From positions 1-30,547 of the IMG/VR virus record IMGVR_UViG_3300035419_000031: a stretch of 30,547 bases of DNA. One strand, written 5' to 3'. The DNA is from a virus (lineage: Duplodnaviria > Caudoviricetes). This document shows positions 1 to 14,471 of this stretch, piece by piece. Under the pieces are notes generated by a model. It worked only from the letters and a program-made list of their open reading frames with translations. It was not told where the DNA came from and did no database searches. Each line of letters begins with the position of its first letter. Positions within the stretch are counted from its first letter, which is position 1. Made by a program: the position numbers and the translations under genes.

Positions 1-1252
1 GGTCTGGTGAGCCTATGGACCCTAGAGGTTCCCACTGTACCATCTGATCTTCTAAATCATTAAGTCCCTTGACATGCTTAACTTTCTTCTGTTCGTATAA
101 GGCTGACACAGGCTCTGCCCTTGCCATCTTACCACGACTAGCATGTACTAATTTTATCGGGACGTTTTCATCTTCTGTTTGCAAGGTATGTCGGACCATA
201 TCACCACCTTGGTTACGTTCCGCAACAATACGGTCTGCCATGTGGGTGTGATATAGCTCTATGGCTTTTGAAGCCCATTCTTTAGGTGAATACTTACCTG
301 TGTGATCCTCTAAGACGTAAGCTACGCCATCCTCACTAATACCTGCAACGACAATACCTGTCATGTCACTGTCAGTCTTATTAGTAATAGCAGGGTCTAC
401 AGATACAACAATACGGGACAAGGCTGGAACCTCATCCCGATCTATCTCGCATTTGTGTAGGAGTTCCCTATTCCATAAAGCACCTGATGCTTCGTCAAGG
501 ATCTCTGCATATAATTCTTGCCTACCAAGGCGTGTACCCTCATAAGTCTTCTTGACCGCATCAATAAACGTATCAGCTAAGTTATCTGCGTTATCAAACG
601 TAGAACCCTTAGAAATATGCGTTTTGGGGTCAGAAATAATGTTACGGAGCAGTTTTGTCGTTTTTGGCGTAGTTGTGATAAAAACCTGCGGCTTTCGGCC
701 TAAACGGAGGCCAAACATCATCATATCCCAAGTTTCTTGTGCGTTTCGCCATGCACACAATTCGTCCGTCCAAGCTGAGTAGGCTTGTGGTCCACGTAGG
801 CGTTCTGGGTCCTCTGCGGAGAAGAACACGGCTTTCGATCCGTTTTCCCAAGTTAGCGTGTTGTTCGTGGGGGACCATACAGGGAAACCAATTTGTTTAC
901 CACGGTACGTCCTATCACCTTTCCAGCAGACATTAAGTAGCCCACTGTCACCTTCAACCATAACACGCCTAACATCTCCTTTAGTTGGTGCAACACAGTG
1001 GACAATCTTATCGCCCTTCTTGATCCTGTGTCGGACCCATTCGGCACCAGCACGGGTTTTACCCCAGCCACGACCAGCAAGTGCAAGCCAAGCATTCCAA
1101 TCACCTTTAGGTTCTAGTTGTTCGGGCCTAGCCCAAAACTCCCAGTTAAATCTAAGTTCTTCGTTTTTAGCTGGTCCTAAAGACTTTAGTATCTCAGCTA
1201 CTTCTGAGTCGGGTAACGTTCTCAGATCCTTCGCCGTTATTGGAAGAGTCAT
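1..1252 (-). CDS. terL: Terminase large subunit (GTA-like TerL), truncated at the window edge
   Basis: Not in the ORF track; translated by hand from the ATG at 1252 and open to the edge: MTLPITAKDLRTLP..., Walker A LAGRGWGKTRAGAEWV, EDPERLRGPQ...WTDELCAW (Walker B), ITTTPK, nuclease motif VVSVDPA, SRGKMARAEPVSALYEQ. Confidence 0.95.
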   Translation of the reverse strand, partial: MTLPITAKDLRTLPDSEVAEILKSLGPAKNEELRFNWEFWARPEQLEPKGDWNAWLALAGRGWGKTRAGAEWVRHRIKKGDKIVHCVAPTKGDVRRVMVEGDSGLLNVCWKGDRTYRGKQIGFPVWSPTNNTLTWENGSKAVFFSAEDPERLRGPQAYSAWTDELCAWRNAQETWDMMMFGLRLGRKPQVFITTTPKTTKLLRNIISDPKTHISKGSTFDNADNLADTFIDAVKKTYEGTRLGRQELYAEILDEASGALWNRELLHKCEIDRDEVPALSRIVVSVDPAITNKTDSDMTGIVVAGISEDGVAYVLEDHTGKYSPKEWASKAIELYHTHMADRIVAERNQGGDMVRHTLQTEDENVPIKLVHASRGKMARAEPVSALYEQKKVKHVKGLNDLEDQMVQWEPLGSIGSPD

Positions 1253-1622
1253 CTTTCTTGCCTAACAATGTCATCAAACTGTCAATAGCACTAACGTCTT
1301 CATCGGGATCACTACTGCTTTCAACTTCAACATTCGTTTGTGTTGGGGACCAACCACCCTTACTGCGTAAGAATAGCTCTGCTGCCTTAAAGTCACCGTC
1401 AAGGGCCTGTTGTATCACGACAGAACCAATCTGACCTACAATCTCTGCTCTCTCTGCTGCTATGTCATCACCATAGAGCTTATAGAAGGTTGCAGATGAG
1501 GAGGGTGCTTGTTGATACTTCTGGATAGAAGCCATAATGTCCTTAACAGCGACACCATTCCTGATACCGCTACGGACAGCTTTTGCGATGTTTTCGCTAT
1601 ACTTTATTTTGTCCATTACCAC
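1194..1622 (-). CDS. Probable terminase small subunit
   Basis: 142 aa directly upstream of and overlapping terL; N-terminal HTH-like segment (SSATFYKLY) and a QALDGDFKAAELFLRSKGGW segment typical of TerS. Confidence 0.75.
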   Translation of the reverse strand: MVMDKIKYSENIAKAVRSGIRNGVAVKDIMASIQKYQQAPSSSATFYKLYGDDIAAERAEIVGQIGSVVIQQALDGDFKAAELFLRSKGGWSPTQTNVEVESSSDPDEDVSAIDSLMTLLGKKDDSSNNGEGSENVTRLRSS

Positions 1623-1811: not shown

Positions 1812-2120
1812 ACAAAGGAAAGAAAGTTTAGTAGCTCAGGGACTACCGTGGGAACTAGTGTGACATATATGCAACACCTAAAGTATTTTTTTTTATTTTG
1901 GAGATAGGAGTGGATACGCACGGTGGTAAAAACGGGCCAGATTTTTCTGGGGGACCCTATGGGGTGGCCTAAAAATCACAGGTTTGAATAAAAACGCAAG
2001 TTTTCCCAAGTTTTTCTTGACACTCGGGGCGGGAGGGGCCAGCCCTTCACACTGTCGGACCATTGCCAAGCATTGGAAAAGCCGTTGTTCAATCTCATAT
2101 TATCCCCTTGTAAACTATGG

Positions 2121-2146
2121 AAAAAGGACGGGGCCTAAGCCCCGCC
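2121..2146 (-). terminator. Rho-independent terminator of the leftward module
   Basis: Minus strand GGCGGGGC-TTAG-GCCCCGTCC-TTTTT, about 20 bp after the stop of 2168..2779. Confidence 0.8.
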
Positions 2147-2167
2147 AGTTTGAGCCAACACAAGCCC

Positions 2168-2779
2168 TTAAACAATAACCGCATTTACACAAGTAACATG
2201 GTAAGCAGATACAGCGGCACCGGTGTCAAGCTTGCGGTTCGCTTTGTTACCGGCCACATATTTACACCATGAATTCCACCAATAGGCAGAGCCTTTTTGT
2301 TGTGTCATAGCAACATACGCTTGCACCTTGCGACGGGCTGTATCTGGTTTAACCTTGCCAAGCTTCACATGTTTTGCTTCCAGTCCTAAGCGTACAAGGT
2401 TATGACTATCAATACACGCCACGTTAAAGCCTAATTGCTGAGCAACAAAAGCCGCCTTGACCATGCCAAGATTAGGGATAGGTAGGAAAAGCTCAATAGC
2501 GGCAACGGCTGCATCTTGCGAGCGGGTGCCTAGGGTTTCCTTAATGTGGTTTACCTTGCCCCAAAGATAGGCGTCATGCGCTTGTGTATAGGCGTAACCT
2601 TTGCCCTTTTGTCCCCACATAAAGCGGCTGGAAGCGCCGTGCTTGTTGACGTCTGTTATTTGATCCAAGCATGTAGAAAGCCCCGCTTGTATGGTGCAGA
2701 GTGTAAAAGTTACAACGGGTAAAACCGACTGCTTGGCTTCACAAATATCTATTATTTGATTTACATGTTTTCTATACAT
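2168..2779 (-). CDS. Putative HhH-GPD superfamily DNA glycosylase-like protein
   Basis: LPIPNLGMVKAAFVAQQLGFNVACIDSHNLVRLG resembles the helix-hairpin-helix plus (V/I)DxH motif of EndoIII/OGG glycosylases; AGGGG RBS upstream. Confidence 0.55.
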   Translation of the reverse strand: MYRKHVNQIIDICEAKQSVLPVVTFTLCTIQAGLSTCLDQITDVNKHGASSRFMWGQKGKGYAYTQAHDAYLWGKVNHIKETLGTRSQDAAVAAIELFLPIPNLGMVKAAFVAQQLGFNVACIDSHNLVRLGLEAKHVKLGKVKPDTARRKVQAYVAMTQQKGSAYWWNSWCKYVAGNKANRKLDTGAAVSAYHVTCVNAVIV

Positions 2780-2783
2780 TGTC

Positions 2784-2837
2784 TCAGTCCCCTAAAATGA
2801 TAATTGCGGCGCTAATTAAAAAGATAACTTCAAACAT
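2784..2837 (-). CDS. Putative 17-aa hydrophobic peptide (MFEVIFLISAAIIILGD)
   Basis: ATG follows AAGGA and the repeated leader element; the stop lies 4 nt before the next ATG. Confidence 0.45.
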   Translation of the reverse strand: MFEVIFLISAAIIILGD

Positions 2838-2846
2838 TGTTTTGTG

Positions 2847-3158
2847 TCCTTGTGTTGGTGTGTTGGGGGCTTGTGCCCCCTTTTGTTTATACCCGAAAAA
2901 CTGCAATTTTGCGAGGGCTAGCGGCTTTGGGTGCGTGATTGCGAAAGCCTTGACCGAGCGGGGCAATCTCACCGTCTCTAATTGCCGCCTGTACAATATA
3001 GCGAGCTAGGTCACCATTTTGTCCAGTCATTTGCGCCATTTTTGAGGGGCTAATGATACCATGTGTTGCGATTAATGCGGCTTTGAATTGATTACGTGTC
3101 ATTTTGATTTATCCTTTTGTGTTGGTGTGTTGGGGCGCTGTGGCCCCTTTTAGGTTTA
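2847..3158 (-). repeat. Two copies of an intergenic hairpin plus leader element (about 2847-2889 and 3112-3158)
   Basis: Identical 19-mer TTGTGTTGGTGTGTTGGGG at 2850-2868 and 3117-3135, each joined to a GGGG..CCCC hairpin and the RBS; partial copy at 3350-3359. Confidence 0.85.
2887..3102 (-). CDS. Small hypothetical protein (possible wHTH DNA-binding protein)
   Basis: 71 aa, basic, AAGGA RBS, bounded by the repeated intergenic elements. Confidence 0.65.
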   Translation of the reverse strand: MTRNQFKAALIATHGIISPSKMAQMTGQNGDLARYIVQAAIRDGEIAPLGQGFRNHAPKAASPRKIAVFRV

Positions 3159-3350
3159 GATTAAGAACGATTTTATTTCTGACATGATACCGCTTTTCAT
3201 ATCTAAGCAGTCCTCGACTGTCGTGCCGTTGCGGTTTGGTTGACCGTCATCATTCAAGATATCTAACATGATGCTATCCCACGTTGCATAACGGCGCACC
3301 AGATTATCAATGTGGTCAAGTTTTTCTTGTGTTACGGTAGCATCTAACAT
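3156..3350 (-). CDS. Small hypothetical protein, first gene of the leftward module
   Basis: 64 aa, AAGGA RBS, downstream of a sigma70-like promoter. Confidence 0.7.
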   Translation of the reverse strand: MLDATVTQEKLDHIDNLVRRYATWDSIMLDILNDDGQPNRNGTTVEDCLDMKSGIMSEIKSFLI

Positions 3351-3389
3351 TGTGTTGGTTCCTTTTTTGTTTGTCGTTTCGATATAACT

Positions 3390-3418
3390 CTTATCGCTGA
3401 TTCGGGATTAGATGTAAA
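3390..3418 (-). promoter_or_regulatory. Sigma70-like leftward promoter
   Basis: TTTACA-17 bp-GATAAG on the minus strand, with an AT-rich upstream element, about 40 bp before the ATG at 3350. Confidence 0.6.
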
Positions 3419-3460
3419 CCCCAAAAATGCAAAAAATGCAGAAAAAGTGAATAAATCTTA

Positions 3461-3473
3461 TAAGCCCTTGATT
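3461..3473 (-). promoter_or_regulatory. IHF consensus site
   Basis: Minus strand AATCAAGGGCTTA matches WATCAANNNNTTR exactly. Confidence 0.55.
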
Positions 3474-3527
3474 TCAAACAATTCTTTTTTGATATGGGCA
3501 AAAAATCCTTATATACTATAATGAGTG

Positions 3528-3608
3528 GAACAAAAAAAGAACAAACCGTGAACAAACCATGAACGAACAAAACGTGAACAAAAGGTGAACAAACCATGAA
3601 CAGAGAAC
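3528..3608 (+). promoter_or_regulatory. Tandem array of alphaproteobacterial LexA (SOS) boxes, GAAC-N7-GAAC
   Basis: GAAC at 3528, 3539, 3550, 3561 and at 3565, 3576, 3587, 3598: two chains of 11-bp period giving six perfect boxes with A-rich spacers; extra GAAC at 3605. Confidence 0.75.
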
Positions 3609-3705
3609 AAATAGGGGGAACGCATGTCCCGTGTACCCTAGGCTGTCAAACCCGTTTCGGCATTCTGGGGCCGTTTCTGGGCCTCTGAGGGGTAACGGCG
3701 TGTAC

Positions 3706-3807
3706 TGCATAGCAGGTATGATCCAGACGCATGCCGTACATATTCATAAATTCATATATGTTTGTCCAGACAAATAAGCCATGCAAAAAATGCATAGCAG
3801 GTATGCA
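3706..3807. repeat. TGCATAGCAGGTATG direct repeat and ATGC-N7-GCAT elements (LysR-type operator-like)
   Basis: 15-mer at 3706 and 3791; ATGC-N7-GCAT-N7-ATGC at 3781-3806; ATGCAAAAAATGCA also at 3427. Confidence 0.65.
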
Positions 3808-3963
3808 AAAATAATTGTTGCACCGGTCCGTGGTTCTGCTATGCTGGTCGTAGAGGGTGAAAAGCCCCACATTGCCAACACACCCAAGGGCCAGATTTTT
3901 TAAATCGCAGTCGCAAAAGGTGGAAGGATGCGCAATCGAAATTGTGTTGCAAAAATGTCACAC

Positions 3964-4145
3964 TATCCCTTTGAGATATACCAAAAAGTCCTTGACTATC
4001 CTTTCGGGTAGGCAATCGGGGCAAAATAGTTCTTGACTATACCAAAGGATATAAAATGACTCAGAATAGTTCTTGACTATACTTTCGGATATAAAACCTA
4101 TCCTTTCGGATTGTCAAGAGATCATTGGGATATCTCATATGGATA
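3964..4145. repeat. Cluster of TATCC-N4-GGATA-type palindromes, several preceded by CTTGAC
   Basis: Copies at 3997, 4038, 4078, 4099; N5 variants at 3964 and 4131; AATAGTTCTTGACTATAC duplicated at 4025 and 4065. Confidence 0.75.
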
Positions 4146-4147
4146 GT

Positions 4148-4249
4148 GTTGCAAAAATGTCACAGTTGCATAAAAGTCACAGTTGCCAAAATGTCACTGT
4201 GGTAAAAAAGTCACTGTGTCATAAAAGTCACTGTTGCAAAAATGTCACA
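4148..4249 (+). repeat. Six tandem 17-bp repeats, consensus GTTGCAAAAAWGTCACW
   Basis: Units start at 4148, 4165, 4182, 4199, 4216, 4233; solo copies at 3945-3962 (+) and 1859-1876 (-). Confidence 0.9.
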
Positions 4250-4273
4250 AGGACGAAAATCGGGAAAATCAGA

Positions 4274-4436
4274 CCCCCCACCGTGGGAAATGACCCCCCG
4301 TGGAAATTAGCCACCCAAGCAAGGTTTTGCCGATATGCGTTGCCGATCTTGCCTCCCTACCGTGGGAATTAGCCCCCCGTGGAAATTAGTTGGGCAGAGG
4401 GTAAAAAAAGTACTTGACCCCCACCGTGGGAAATGA
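4274..4436 (+). repeat. Five copies of a C-run plus CGTGG(G)AA motif
   Basis: Copies near 4276, 4294, 4355, 4373 and 4419. Confidence 0.85.
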
Positions 4437-4442
4437 TTTAAG
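4414..4442 (+). promoter_or_regulatory. Sigma70-like rightward early promoter
   Basis: TTGACC-17 bp-TTTAAG, followed by AAGGAG RBS and the ATG at 4463. Confidence 0.6.
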
Positions 4443-4462
4443 GGTGTAAGAAAAGGAGAGAC

Positions 4463-4660
4463 ATGATGTCAGGAGCAACAGCAGAAGACTTTAACAAGTG
4501 GGAAGCCCACGCAAAGACTTTATCTAAGGAGTCACTAGAGTATGTGATTAGTGATTGTCGTGCAGCTAAAGAGGCAATGAGTGGGTGGAACCCCAATCGT
4601 GAGAACTACTACGCTGACCAATCTATGACATATAGCCAAGAGCTAAGGAGAAGAAAATGA
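4463..4660 (+). CDS. Hypothetical early protein
   Basis: 65 aa, strong RBS, first of a chain of overlapping ORFs. Confidence 0.75.
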   Translation: MMSGATAEDFNKWEAHAKTLSKESLEYVISDCRAAKEAMSGWNPNRENYYADQSMTYSQELRRRK

Positions 4661-5010
4661 GAGTTGAAGTTTACTGGAACCTGCGTAAGAGTTGTTATTC
4701 TGTTCGTGATTGTAGTACGGGCCGTGTAGTAGAACACACCAACAGCCTGTGGATCAGAAGACCTGAGTTTGTCGTGCGACAGGCTGGAAGGGAAAAGGTC
4801 CTACGTGACAAACAGAAGAATGTACACGCCTTTGTACGGGGCGAATTGGGAGAGGGTACACTGTTCCCAAATAAAGAGGGCAGCATAGCAACTTACAACC
4901 CATATAAATATTCTACCTTTGTAGATAAAAAAACTGAAAAAGTGCTTTACAATGCTAAGTATGCTATGTTAGAAACAGTTAATAACAAAGGAGTGATAGA
5001 ATATGTTTGA
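4657..5010 (+). CDS. Conserved phage hypothetical protein
   Basis: VYWNLRK..YSVR...GREKVLRDKQKNVHAFVRG...YNPYK, a pattern recognised from phage hypothetical proteins; ATGA overlap. Confidence 0.8.
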   Translation: MRVEVYWNLRKSCYSVRDCSTGRVVEHTNSLWIRRPEFVVRQAGREKVLRDKQKNVHAFVRGELGEGTLFPNKEGSIATYNPYKYSTFVDKKTEKVLYNAKYAMLETVNNKGVIEYV

Positions 5011-5206
5011 TAAAAGATCAGGTGGACCATTTGATTGTGGCGTAAGAGACTACTACTATGGACGTAACTCAAACCCACACTTCTACAGAGATGGGTGCAA
5101 CATGAAAGGAAAGTACACAGAGAACCTGACACAACAGGAAACCAAAGAGTTCCACGCTGGTTGGGATGATGCACAAGAGAGTGGATTTAGAAAGGAGTAT
5201 GACTAA
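5003..5206 (+). CDS. Phage hypothetical protein
   Basis: 67 aa, GGPFDCG..DYYYGR...PH pattern; AGGAG RBS. Confidence 0.75.
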   Translation: MFDKRSGGPFDCGVRDYYYGRNSNPHFYRDGCNMKGKYTENLTQQETKEFHAGWDDAQESGFRKEYD

Positions 5207-5343
5207 TGACTGTAGATAAATGGGATATTGAAGATGTTGTGCAAGAGTACGACTCTAATCTTAACATCACCCTGACCCAACTTGCCAAAAAGTCTGGTTG
5301 GGATTACCAAGATCTTATTGATCTTTTAATGACGGAGCAATAA
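5206..5343 (+). CDS. Small hypothetical protein (45 aa, HTH-like)
   Basis: Hand translation MTVDKWDIEDVVQEYDSNLNITLTQLAKKSGWDYQDLIDLLMTEQ; AAGGAG RBS, TAATG coupling. Confidence 0.7.
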   Translation: MTVDKWDIEDVVQEYDSNLNITLTQLAKKSGWDYQDLIDLLMTEQ

Positions 5344-5344
5344 A

Positions 5345-5497
5345 ATGTATTATGTAGAGGTTGTAGTAAAATATAGAGTTGAAGACAAACAAGCCGCACA
5401 CGAACCTTACTGGTTAAGAGAGGCGATAGAGGCTTACCTTGAGGGTGAGGAAGAAGTAGTATCAGTAAGCAAACCAACAGTGATAAACGAAGGTTGA
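5345..5497 (+). CDS. Small hypothetical protein (50 aa)
   Basis: Hand translation MYYVEVVVKYRVEDKQAAHEPYWLREAIEAYLEGEEEVVSVSKPTVINEG; GGAG RBS; fills the gap exactly. Confidence 0.65.
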   Translation: MYYVEVVVKYRVEDKQAAHEPYWLREAIEAYLEGEEEVVSVSKPTVINEG

Positions 5498-7358: not shown

Positions 7359-7492
7359 TGACCATAGGGGAGTTTATACCCTACATCATAGCCCAATCTG
7401 TCGTGCTAGGTAGTATAGCGTTTATACCGTGTTGGGTAATATTCTTAATAGTAATGCAAATAAGGAAAAGTAATGCAAGGAAACATAAATGA
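7358..7492 (+). CDS. Putative small membrane protein (44 aa)
   Basis: GTG start; MTIGEFIPYIIAQSVVLGSIAFIPCWVIFLIVMQIRKSNARKHK, one TM segment plus a basic tail; fills the thyX-sigma gap. Confidence 0.55.
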   Translation: MTIGEFIPYIIAQSVVLGSIAFIPCWVIFLIVMQIRKSNARKHK

Positions 7493-7998
7493 ACTATGAT
7501 ATGACAAACGAAGAGATGGCACACTACTTTGCTGCTAGGTATGGCAACCCTGAGAAGTACGAAGATTTGTACCAAGAGGCTTGGGTAGCCATCCTAGAGG
7601 CAGAGGGCAAGGGCTTAGATAGAAAGGGTGTGTACTGGCATGTGAAGCCCCATGTGAGCCGATATTATAACTACCGTGACCGTGTAGTGCCACTACCACC
7701 CAGAGGCGGCTCTAAGAGCTTGCTAGAGGGCCATGAGATTGAATACGACATCAAGGATTATATGTCTATCTCACCAGACCATGCGGAAGCCTACGAACTA
7801 AAAAGGGAAGTAGATTTTATGCTAAAAAACATGGCAGAGGGGCTTGCATGTCAAGACAGACAAGTGCTAGAAGATATACACTACAAAGGCAAGAGCTACA
7901 GAGATTTGGCAAAAGAACGTGGTTACAGTCACGTATGGTGGCAAAAATATCACACTCAGCTTTTAAATAAGCTAAAAAGTTTACAGGACCCAAATTAA
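7489..7998 (+). CDS. Phage-encoded sigma70-family (ECF-sized) sigma factor
   Basis: Region-2-like YEDLYQEAWVAILEA and region-4-like L..QDRQVLEDIHYKGKSYRDLAKERGYS HTH. Confidence 0.75.
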   Translation: MNYDMTNEEMAHYFAARYGNPEKYEDLYQEAWVAILEAEGKGLDRKGVYWHVKPHVSRYYNYRDRVVPLPPRGGSKSLLEGHEIEYDIKDYMSISPDHAEAYELKREVDFMLKNMAEGLACQDRQVLEDIHYKGKSYRDLAKERGYSHVWWQKYHTQLLNKLKSLQDPN

Positions 7999-13930: not shown

Positions 13931-14265
13931 TGTATTCAGCTAAGGACATGAAAGATATGATTGACATGTACTCACAGTTTGTAGAGGACAAGATGCTTAC
14001 CAAGGGGCGTGAGCGGTTAATTGAGAATGCACTAGGTCTTACTGGCGAAGCTGGTGAGGTATCAGAGAAGATCAAGAAATTGTTTCGTGATAAGCGAATT
14101 GATGACGATGCGGTCTTGAAAGAGCTAGGAGATGTACTATTTTATACGGTAGCACTATCCAACATCTTTGGTGGCAGTTTGATTAAGATTATCGAATTGA
14201 ACATGGAGAAGTTGAATAGTCGTGTAAAGAATGGTACACTACAAGGATCAGGAGATAATCGGTGA
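13927..14265 (+). CDS. mazG: MazG-like nucleotide pyrophosphohydrolase
   Basis: LGLTGEAGEVSEKIKK...KELGDVLFY...NMEKLNSR...GSGDNR. Confidence 0.9.
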   Translation: MMYSAKDMKDMIDMYSQFVEDKMLTKGRERLIENALGLTGEAGEVSEKIKKLFRDKRIDDDAVLKELGDVLFYTVALSNIFGGSLIKIIELNMEKLNSRVKNGTLQGSGDNR

Positions 14266-14471
14266 GTAAGAAGAAATCAGGCATGTCGTGGTTCTGGCGT
14301 TACATGAACTACCTTGCGACATGGCGAAGTCACCGAATAGCAATTAAACAGCTAAACCAGTTGACCGACAAAGAGCTATATGATATTGGAATAGCTAGGT
14401 CAGACATTGATCGAATGGTCTGGTTAGAAGAAGATAAAACTATGAGAGCGAGAGGAAAAGAACAAGAATGA
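14262..14471 (+). CDS. DUF1127 (YjiS-like) small protein
   Basis: WRSHRIAIKQLNQLTDKELYDIGIARSDI matches the R...L..L.D..L.DIG..R.DI signature. Confidence 0.85.
   Translation: MSKKKSGMSWFWRYMNYLATWRSHRIAIKQLNQLTDKELYDIGIARSDIDRMVWLEEDKTMRARGKEQE

Follow-up and report, generated by a model that had tools for sequence, protein, structure and literature searches.

Gene content of the phage and its probable host

The window, i.e., the whole stretch of DNA analyzed (30,547 nucleotides, positions 1 to 30,547 of IMGVR_UViG_3300035419_000031), has a virus record completeness of 67%. A profile search of its ORFs revealed a T7-like replication arm on the + strand (ThyX, primase/helicase, polymerase A, exonuclease, endonucleases and ribonucleotide reductase), and the - strand arm carries long-tail morphogenesis genes. 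The probable small terminase subunit gene (terS), for which no PHROG or Pfam match was found, sits 1.9 kb from an array of LexA-type boxes (Table 1). Between them lies a gene for a 203-aa helix-hairpin-helix (HhH) protein, also without a Pfam or PHROG match. Its structure was modeled with a pLDDT of 95 from an alignment and of 35 from the single sequence, and Foldseek returned archaeal and Thermotoga Ogg structures as weak matches (probability 0.92-0.93, E 0.2-0.5). The protein is likely an Ogg2-type 8-oxoguanine glycosylase/AP lyase.

The nearest isolate is Roseobacter phage CRP-6 (69% in the polymerase, with a similar terminase region), whose host is given as an RCA roseobacter in the available part of its description (PMC6918029). 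GANTC is depleted over the window (37 sites vs. 91.5 expected, ∼1.2 per kb). Because of the kinship with CRP-6, the GANTC depletion and the presence of a host-type DUF1127 gene, the host is likely a roseobacter, and the alphaproteobacterial host assumed in a preliminary description of this DNA is supported indirectly by these features. A lexA gene was detected in 42 of 61 sampled genomes of the class to which this presumed host would belong.

That description had also called the phage apparently lytic, with no integrase or repressor. Tyrosine integrase, resolvase, S24 repressor and HTH_3 genes were found in none of four near-complete relatives (93-100% completeness), two of which carry box arrays, so that the claim stands for gene content only. 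In the accessible text of PMC8528129, an integrase is reported for 10 of 12 metagenomic genomes that combine the CRP-6 replication module with another head module.

A six-box array beside a predicted promoter

Six GAAC-N7-GAAC boxes were found on the + strand, with starts at 3528, 3539, 3550, 3565, 3576 and 3587 and the last base at 3601, exactly the boxes and spacers first described. The array had been drawn as extending to 3608; the boxes stop at 3601, and the GAAC at 3605-3608, the ninth, has a partner at N9. This GAAC-N9-GAAC is probably a relic box that has slipped out of register. An N7 version of it with an identical spacer start is present in relatives L855 and L845.

Table 1. Features of the control region and selected genes of the window
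Feature	Position	Strand	Remarks
Probable terminase small subunit (terS)	1194..1622	-	Directly upstream of terL; homology to CRP-6 gp65, which lies beside terL
HhH protein, 203 aa	2168..2779	-	Widespread in phages; K108 and D124 invariant; E 0.04
Predicted leftward promoter, TTTACA-17-GATAAG	3390..3418	-	For the small-gene/glycosylase operon; read by eye, absent from the promoter-scan calls
IHF-consensus site	3461..3473	-	Kept in 10/12 alleles
Predicted rightward sigma70-type promoter, -35 TTGATA, -10 TATACT/TATAAT	3489..3522	+	Start predicted at box 1 or immediately ahead of it
Chain 1, four GAAC half-sites at an 11-bp period, three overlapping LexA-type boxes	3528..3564	+	16.7-19.8 bits vs. 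host median 17.2
Chain 2, three boxes in the other copy of the 37-bp unit	3565..3601	+	More decayed than chain 1 in relatives
GAAC-N9-GAAC	3605..3621	+	GAAC at 3605-3608, 9-base spacer, GAAC at 3618-3621
ATGC-N7-GCAT-N7-ATGC block	3781..3806	.	Kept in all close alleles used as anchor
TTGACTATCC-N4-GGATA-type (TATCC-N4-GGATA) palindromic repeats	3981..4119	.	Slot holds a LexA-type array in L797
Six 17-bp TGTTGC-N6-GTCAC-type repeats	4148..4249	+
Family-wide CCGTGG(G)AAAT / CCAGTGGAAAT repeats and TTGACC -35-like hexamer (4414-4419)	4276..4453	+	Promoter read by eye
Sigma-factor-like ORF	7489-7998		Weak Sigma70_r2 and HTH matches; could read phage-specific promoters
DUF1127 small protein, host-type gene	14262-14471		Directly before ribonucleotide reductase

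The window contains nine GAAC-N7-GAAC sites vs. 0.69 expected (maximum of 4 in 100 shuffles), and base-shuffling of positions 3350-4462 never gave more than two boxes in 5000 trials. The two chains are copies of one 37-bp unit that are 86% alike, so the six boxes are not independent events. A contig of another run (X4, not flagged as the source of the window but belonging to one study with a possible source) spans 2042-5457 with two letters different. Among the contigs of RNA runs, which as contigs cannot show transcription starts, none from X17, X18, X19 or X20 lies over the array; the array is covered by a contig of X15, which is probably DNA. An Rfam search gave one sub-threshold match, outside the array. 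A CRISPR-like repeat was rejected because long spacers are absent, and a coding repeat was rejected because other alleles interrupt or delete the two ORFs that overlap the array (3391-3597 and 3516-3710), neither of which has a ribosome site.

The predicted rightward promoter consists of TTGATA-17-TATACT (3489-3517) and TATAAT (3517-3522), which ends 5 bases before box 1. The nearest -35 had been placed ∼110 bp from the array; this holds for the leftward -35 (3413-3418), but the rightward TATAAT adjoins box 1. A promoter scan of the window found 8 sites in total vs. 8.8 expected, i.e., no excess. Rightward of the array the nearest gene is ∼0.9 kb away, the first gene of the right arm starting at 4463, and the stretch from 3530 to 4460 gave no + strand terminator call.

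This intervening DNA is rich in repeats. The ATGC-N7-GCAT motif of the block at 3781-3806 is also present at 3706-3722, and both have LysR-like spacing; L864, otherwise unrelated, has LexA-type boxes next to the same motif. Further copies of the 17-bp repeat lie at 3945-3962 and 1859-1876, the motif is present in CRP-6, and only 2 of 81 sampled host genomes contain its pattern. One copy of the CCGTGG(G)AAAT / CCAGTGGAAAT repeat sits in the spacer of the predicted promoter there. The site at 3461-3473 fits the IHF consensus.

Fit of the boxes to host LexA sites

IMG/VR contains many four-GAAC chains, at N7 (at least about 1700) as well as at N6 (at least 870) and N8 (at least 9700); most N7 chains have other spacers, and many lie beside DnaC-like loader genes. 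Chain counts by spacing were discarded as a LexA test, as they did not single out N7. Since such chains abound in viruses and are in many cases replication iterons, the bare GAAC-N7 pattern is not diagnostic. A host reference matrix was therefore built from 123 regions, 90 upstream of recA and 33 upstream of lexA, taken from genomes in the same class as G001, which is titled Rhodospirillaceae. Genome G037 counts as one row in the host-genome tallies, and none of its sequence was used.

GAAC-N7-GAAC occurred in 61 of these 123 regions, and any other spacing from 3 to 12 in at most 7. When only the spacer positions were considered, the window boxes ranked between the 44th and 91st percentile of leave-one-out host sites, and four of the six (AAAAAAA, AAACCAT twice, AAAACGT) have spacers identical to those of host sites. 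A conservative shared-permutation test of the spacer fit gave a p of 0.023. The three remaining GAAC-N7-GAAC sites of the window had negative matrix scores, and the score of chain 1 was matched or exceeded by 4 of 123 generic viral chains and that of chain 2 by 1 of 123. Host boxes lie on the sense strand in 59 of 68 cases, and the hosts tolerate AAAC (19 regions) and GTAC (48 regions) as second half-sites. The published alphaproteobacterial SOS box, GTTC-N7-GTTC, agrees with these sites in the portions available of PMC8565304, PMC9578287 and PMC6473078, where the roseobacter sites are in silico.

An exact-box scan of GTDB genomes was rejected as a test because chance matches dominate: the 15-mer shared by boxes 3 and 6 gave about 2700 matches, near chance level. 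Among 80 titled rows, this 15-mer precedes ImuA-like genes in 4 of 9 matches titled Alphaproteobacteria; these calls came from scanning six ORFs, with matches under the curated cut-off.

The array thus combines features of a LexA operator, namely a GAAC-N7-GAAC/GTAC direct repeat, spacers that fit the host matrix and variation at tolerated positions. The variation has exceptions, as one of six core changes (GGAC) is not a tolerated form, and the tolerance of AAAC does not extend to the first half-site. We consider it highly probable, judging from these sequence features, that the array boxes bind host LexA. Their original identification as LexA boxes is supported by the host-matrix scan, the spacer percentiles and the occurrence of the 15-mer before host imuA.

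Variation among close alleles

Twelve distinct close alleles, the window included, were compared (L866, L867 and L869 are duplicates of L857, L859 and L858, and L864 was left out because its flanks do not align). Their box numbers are 6, 6, 6, 6, 6, 4, 3, 2, 1, 1, 0 and 0. Because two of the twelve have no box, the array is dispensable, as judged from assembled contigs. The TATAAT block is retained in 11 of 12 alleles, and in 9 of 12, including the two reduced to one box, a box begins 5 bases past it. The -35 of the rightward promoter shows little conservation, and in two alleles that have the array another sequence takes its place; the leftward -35 block is retained in 11 of 12.

Within the boxes, spacer positions 1-3 do not vary (0/18 columns) and positions 4-7 vary in 10 of 24 columns among eight full-length alleles. 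GAAC had been called invariant, which is so within the window, but among the eight aligned alleles 6 of 32 core half-site columns vary, and five of the six changes yield AAAC or GTAC. The boxes of the second chain decay among the aligned alleles.

Boxes in the wider family and in other viruses

Conservation of the N7 spacing in related phages had been suggested as a check. In non-coding DNA of the family, N7 is indeed preferred, with 35 contexts vs. 2-7 for N5, N6, N8 and N9. Boxes occur in the control region of 12 of 32 loci that span terS to the right arm, some contigs counting twice, and are lacking in 20; no box cluster was found in CRP-6. In L140, L154, L855 and L846, a single or double box lies 5-7 bases after a TATAAT-like hexamer with 5/6 identity (background 5%). 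All boxes of at least 16 bits in 24 primase-anchored loci are oriented toward the right arm.

L129, L158, L792 and L797 have a second type of array, with GAATCAG spacers, which sits in a different slot and has no adjacent -10. In L797 this array (2086-2187) lies ∼65 bases before the early -35, as read by eye, and replaces the TATCC repeats of the similar L091. The repeat blocks of the control region thus look like swappable cassettes. Array types are scattered among box-free lineages in a terS tree; origins were not counted from it because recombination occurs between terS and the control region (L008, L009).

A scan of viruses with a pattern of three chained LexA-like boxes, three by design, yielded 108 stretches, 87 of them distinct. 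Within 250 bases, 32 of the 87 hold five or more boxes (up to 15) of at least three spacer types. Some of these large arrays have boxes on both strands, N6 or N8 forms are almost absent from them, and the 25 with long flanks form 21 similarity clusters.

An accessory operator as the preferred reading

We tentatively favor, with a probability of roughly 0.4, the reading that these boxes form an accessory LexA operator array that gates rightward transcription from the predicted start; LexA occupancy, promoter activity and the transcription target we infer. LexA would cover the predicted start and would block or delay transcription through the repeat-rich 0.9 kb; if each dimer binds two half-sites, a chain could take two dimers and the whole array no more than four. 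The targets may be genes of the early/replication arm, reached by ∼0.9 kb of read-through, or a replication origin. Release would come from RecA-triggered LexA cleavage after host DNA damage or, alternatively, from self-titration as the phage DNA multiplies. Such a brake would be accessory, the 0- to 6-box alleles resembling natural operator-less variants.

The boxes, their fit to the host matrix, their position 5 bases after TATAAT and their sense-like orientation argue for this operator. The weak -35, the lack of a gene for 0.9 kb, the second array type without a -10 and the 20 of 32 control-region loci without a box argue against it. A TATAAT-like hexamer (5/6) is equally close in only 3 of 59 host sense boxes, so by this count the geometry is not the host norm, and six boxes exceed host practice, which is one or two.

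The preliminary description had proposed a LexA sponge, in which replicating phage DNA would soak up LexA and derepress host SOS genes without RecA activation, turning on genes for repair, recombination and division block. This is compatible with the operator reading, not exclusive of it, and as the account of the array here we regard it as possible but rather unlikely. It explains amplification best: a four-half-site chain was found in none of the 123 host regions (a three-half-site chain in 4), and two chained GAACAAA boxes in none of 201 genomes, so that the phage chains exceed any host promoter. The 32 large viral arrays, some on both strands, and the second array type in its other slot also speak for it. 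So does the reactivation of UV-damaged phage by SOS-induced hosts (Weigle reactivation; PMC9578287, available part). The sponge had been argued from the lack of an adjacent promoter and of a recombinase, but a -10 hexamer abuts the array and the phage has genes for an SSB-like protein, an exonuclease and two endonucleases. T7-type nuclease/SSB sets work without RecA, and with this one the phage need not borrow RecA. The at most four dimers per genome face a LexA pool of about a thousand monomers, an E. coli figure from which the host level may differ; because one incoming genome holds no more than these, a sponge can act only late and not at entry. Close alleles, moreover, keep the first box beside TATAAT, not the box number. 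That the array is not LexA-driven, and instead either consists of iterons bound by a phage protein or arose by slippage as a near-neutral repeat with an accidental match, is unlikely. GAAC chains are common at any spacing and many adjoin DnaC-like loader genes, the array is a 37-bp duplication in A-rich DNA, its core columns vary and its second chain decays, and the exact 15-mer is near chance over all GTDB genomes; the spacer fit, the substitution spectrum and the N7 specificity in the family count against this reading. An essential iteron could not be deleted, yet the array is missing from 2 of 12 alleles, and no initiator or loader gene was found among 48 ORFs scanned.

A structural role at the junction of packaging and early genes, where LexA and other repeat-binders would coat DNA near the genome end or pac to shield or organize it, seems improbable to us. 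A terminase gene lies next to 9 of 24 other large arrays (two ORFs on each side), or 4 of 24 by a nearest-ORF rule vs. 0 of 61 control chains, which were scanned one ORF per side at a stricter cut-off; the motif of the 17-bp repeat (TTGCA-N5-RTCAC) accompanies 10 of 25 large arrays vs. 1 of 62 controls, and repeat blocks swap in one slot (L091 vs. L797). Here, the array is 1.9 kb from terS, and box-free alleles exist. Because the terS/early junction also holds divergent promoters, an operator predicts the same location. It is very unlikely that array-bound LexA represses the leftward promoter through an IHF-bent loop and ties the glycosylase operon to host damage, an alternative raised at the outset. 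The IHF consensus does separate the array from the leftward -35, the 203-aa protein resembles Ogg2, and a box lies within 1.5 kb upstream in 13 of 64 Ogg-like loci. The other 51 have no such box, orientation and distance (246-872 bases) vary, L129 and L158 have arrays and no detected Ogg-like gene, and we know of no LexA repression by looping from 110 bp. The loop is weakened further because array and IHF site are lost independently: two of 12 alleles have the array without the IHF site, and two, both box-free alleles, the reverse.

Relation to known systems

The array shares with the alphaproteobacterial SOS box its core, spacing, A-rich spacer start, tolerated second half-sites and sense orientation; hosts have one or two boxes, whereas the phage array has two chains of four half-sites. 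According to the accessible parts of the papers, GIL01 is a non-integrating phage with host LexA as repressor (PMC4551915, PMC9700832), and CTXphi and coliphage 186 also use host LexA in this way (cited in PMC9437464). All three resemble the window phage in that host SOS boxes are grouped at a promoter of the phage, a predicted one in the window. They are temperate, with demonstrated binding and phage co-regulators; the window phage has a T7-like replication module and carries boxes that close relatives can do without. Temperate phages are known to place promoters under host LexA, and the array would resemble this kind of control.

CtrA sites in phages of Alphaproteobacteria and Spo0A in phi29 have been put forward as cases of lytic deferment by way of host regulators (available text of PMC9437464). 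There, likewise, a non-integrating phage reads the host state via sites for a host transcription factor; here the candidate regulator is LexA, and the sites are amplified into arrays. The CRP-6 group shares the replication module, terminase and control-region layout, including the 17-bp repeats (PMC6918029 and PMC8528129, in the parts available), but CRP-6 is a podovirus without a box cluster and the window phage has a long-tail module. PMC10149686 and PMC12629253, as far as their accessible text goes, concern other phage groups.

Outside phages of this kind, the SaPI terS operon is under LexA and colicin genes have tandem SOS boxes. SaPIs likewise have LexA boxes near packaging genes, and the colicin boxes, two vs. 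six here, overlap at the start site for tight repression; box sequence and hosts differ from those here in both.

Among the papers listed by a literature search that covered few subscription journals, none deals with arrays of LexA boxes in lytic phages of Alphaproteobacteria, or with amplified, polymorphic LexA-type arrays that recur across lineages of integrase-free phages. A broader proposal, which we hold to be doubtful, is that many unrelated integrase-free phages separately amplified LexA boxes into arrays of 5-15 boxes at the packaging/early junction. Such arrays, forming one of several exchangeable modules made of sites for host proteins, would be non-coding SOS devices, acting as a brake until the host is damaged and then as a decoy that drains LexA and turns SOS on without a phage protein. 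If host-LexA control extends to the window phage, then abundant marine phages that lack integrase and repressor would sense or deplete the DNA-damage signal of bacteria at the sunlit surface by means of DNA sites only, which would supply a mechanism for carrier-like or delayed infections. The natural 0-, 1-, 2-, 3-, 4- and 6-box alleles in one close clade let operator and sponge be tested directly.

Other features of related control regions

In L011, L015 and L018 two boxes 29 bases apart precede the early operon and an IHF-like site; L158, L792 and L797 show this 29-base box period too. GANTC sites (CcrM/GcrA-type) reach 9-20 per kb at 0.3-3.3 kb upstream of terS in L091, L106, L109, L121, L140, L145 and others, and ∼1 per kb in the same region of the window clade. 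In the second array type, GAATC is embedded within every box. Among the viral arrays, L916 (2250-2750) and L909 (800-1300) have divergent arrays of 7+8 and 6+8 boxes that point outward from a short central spacer, which in L916 is TATA-rich.
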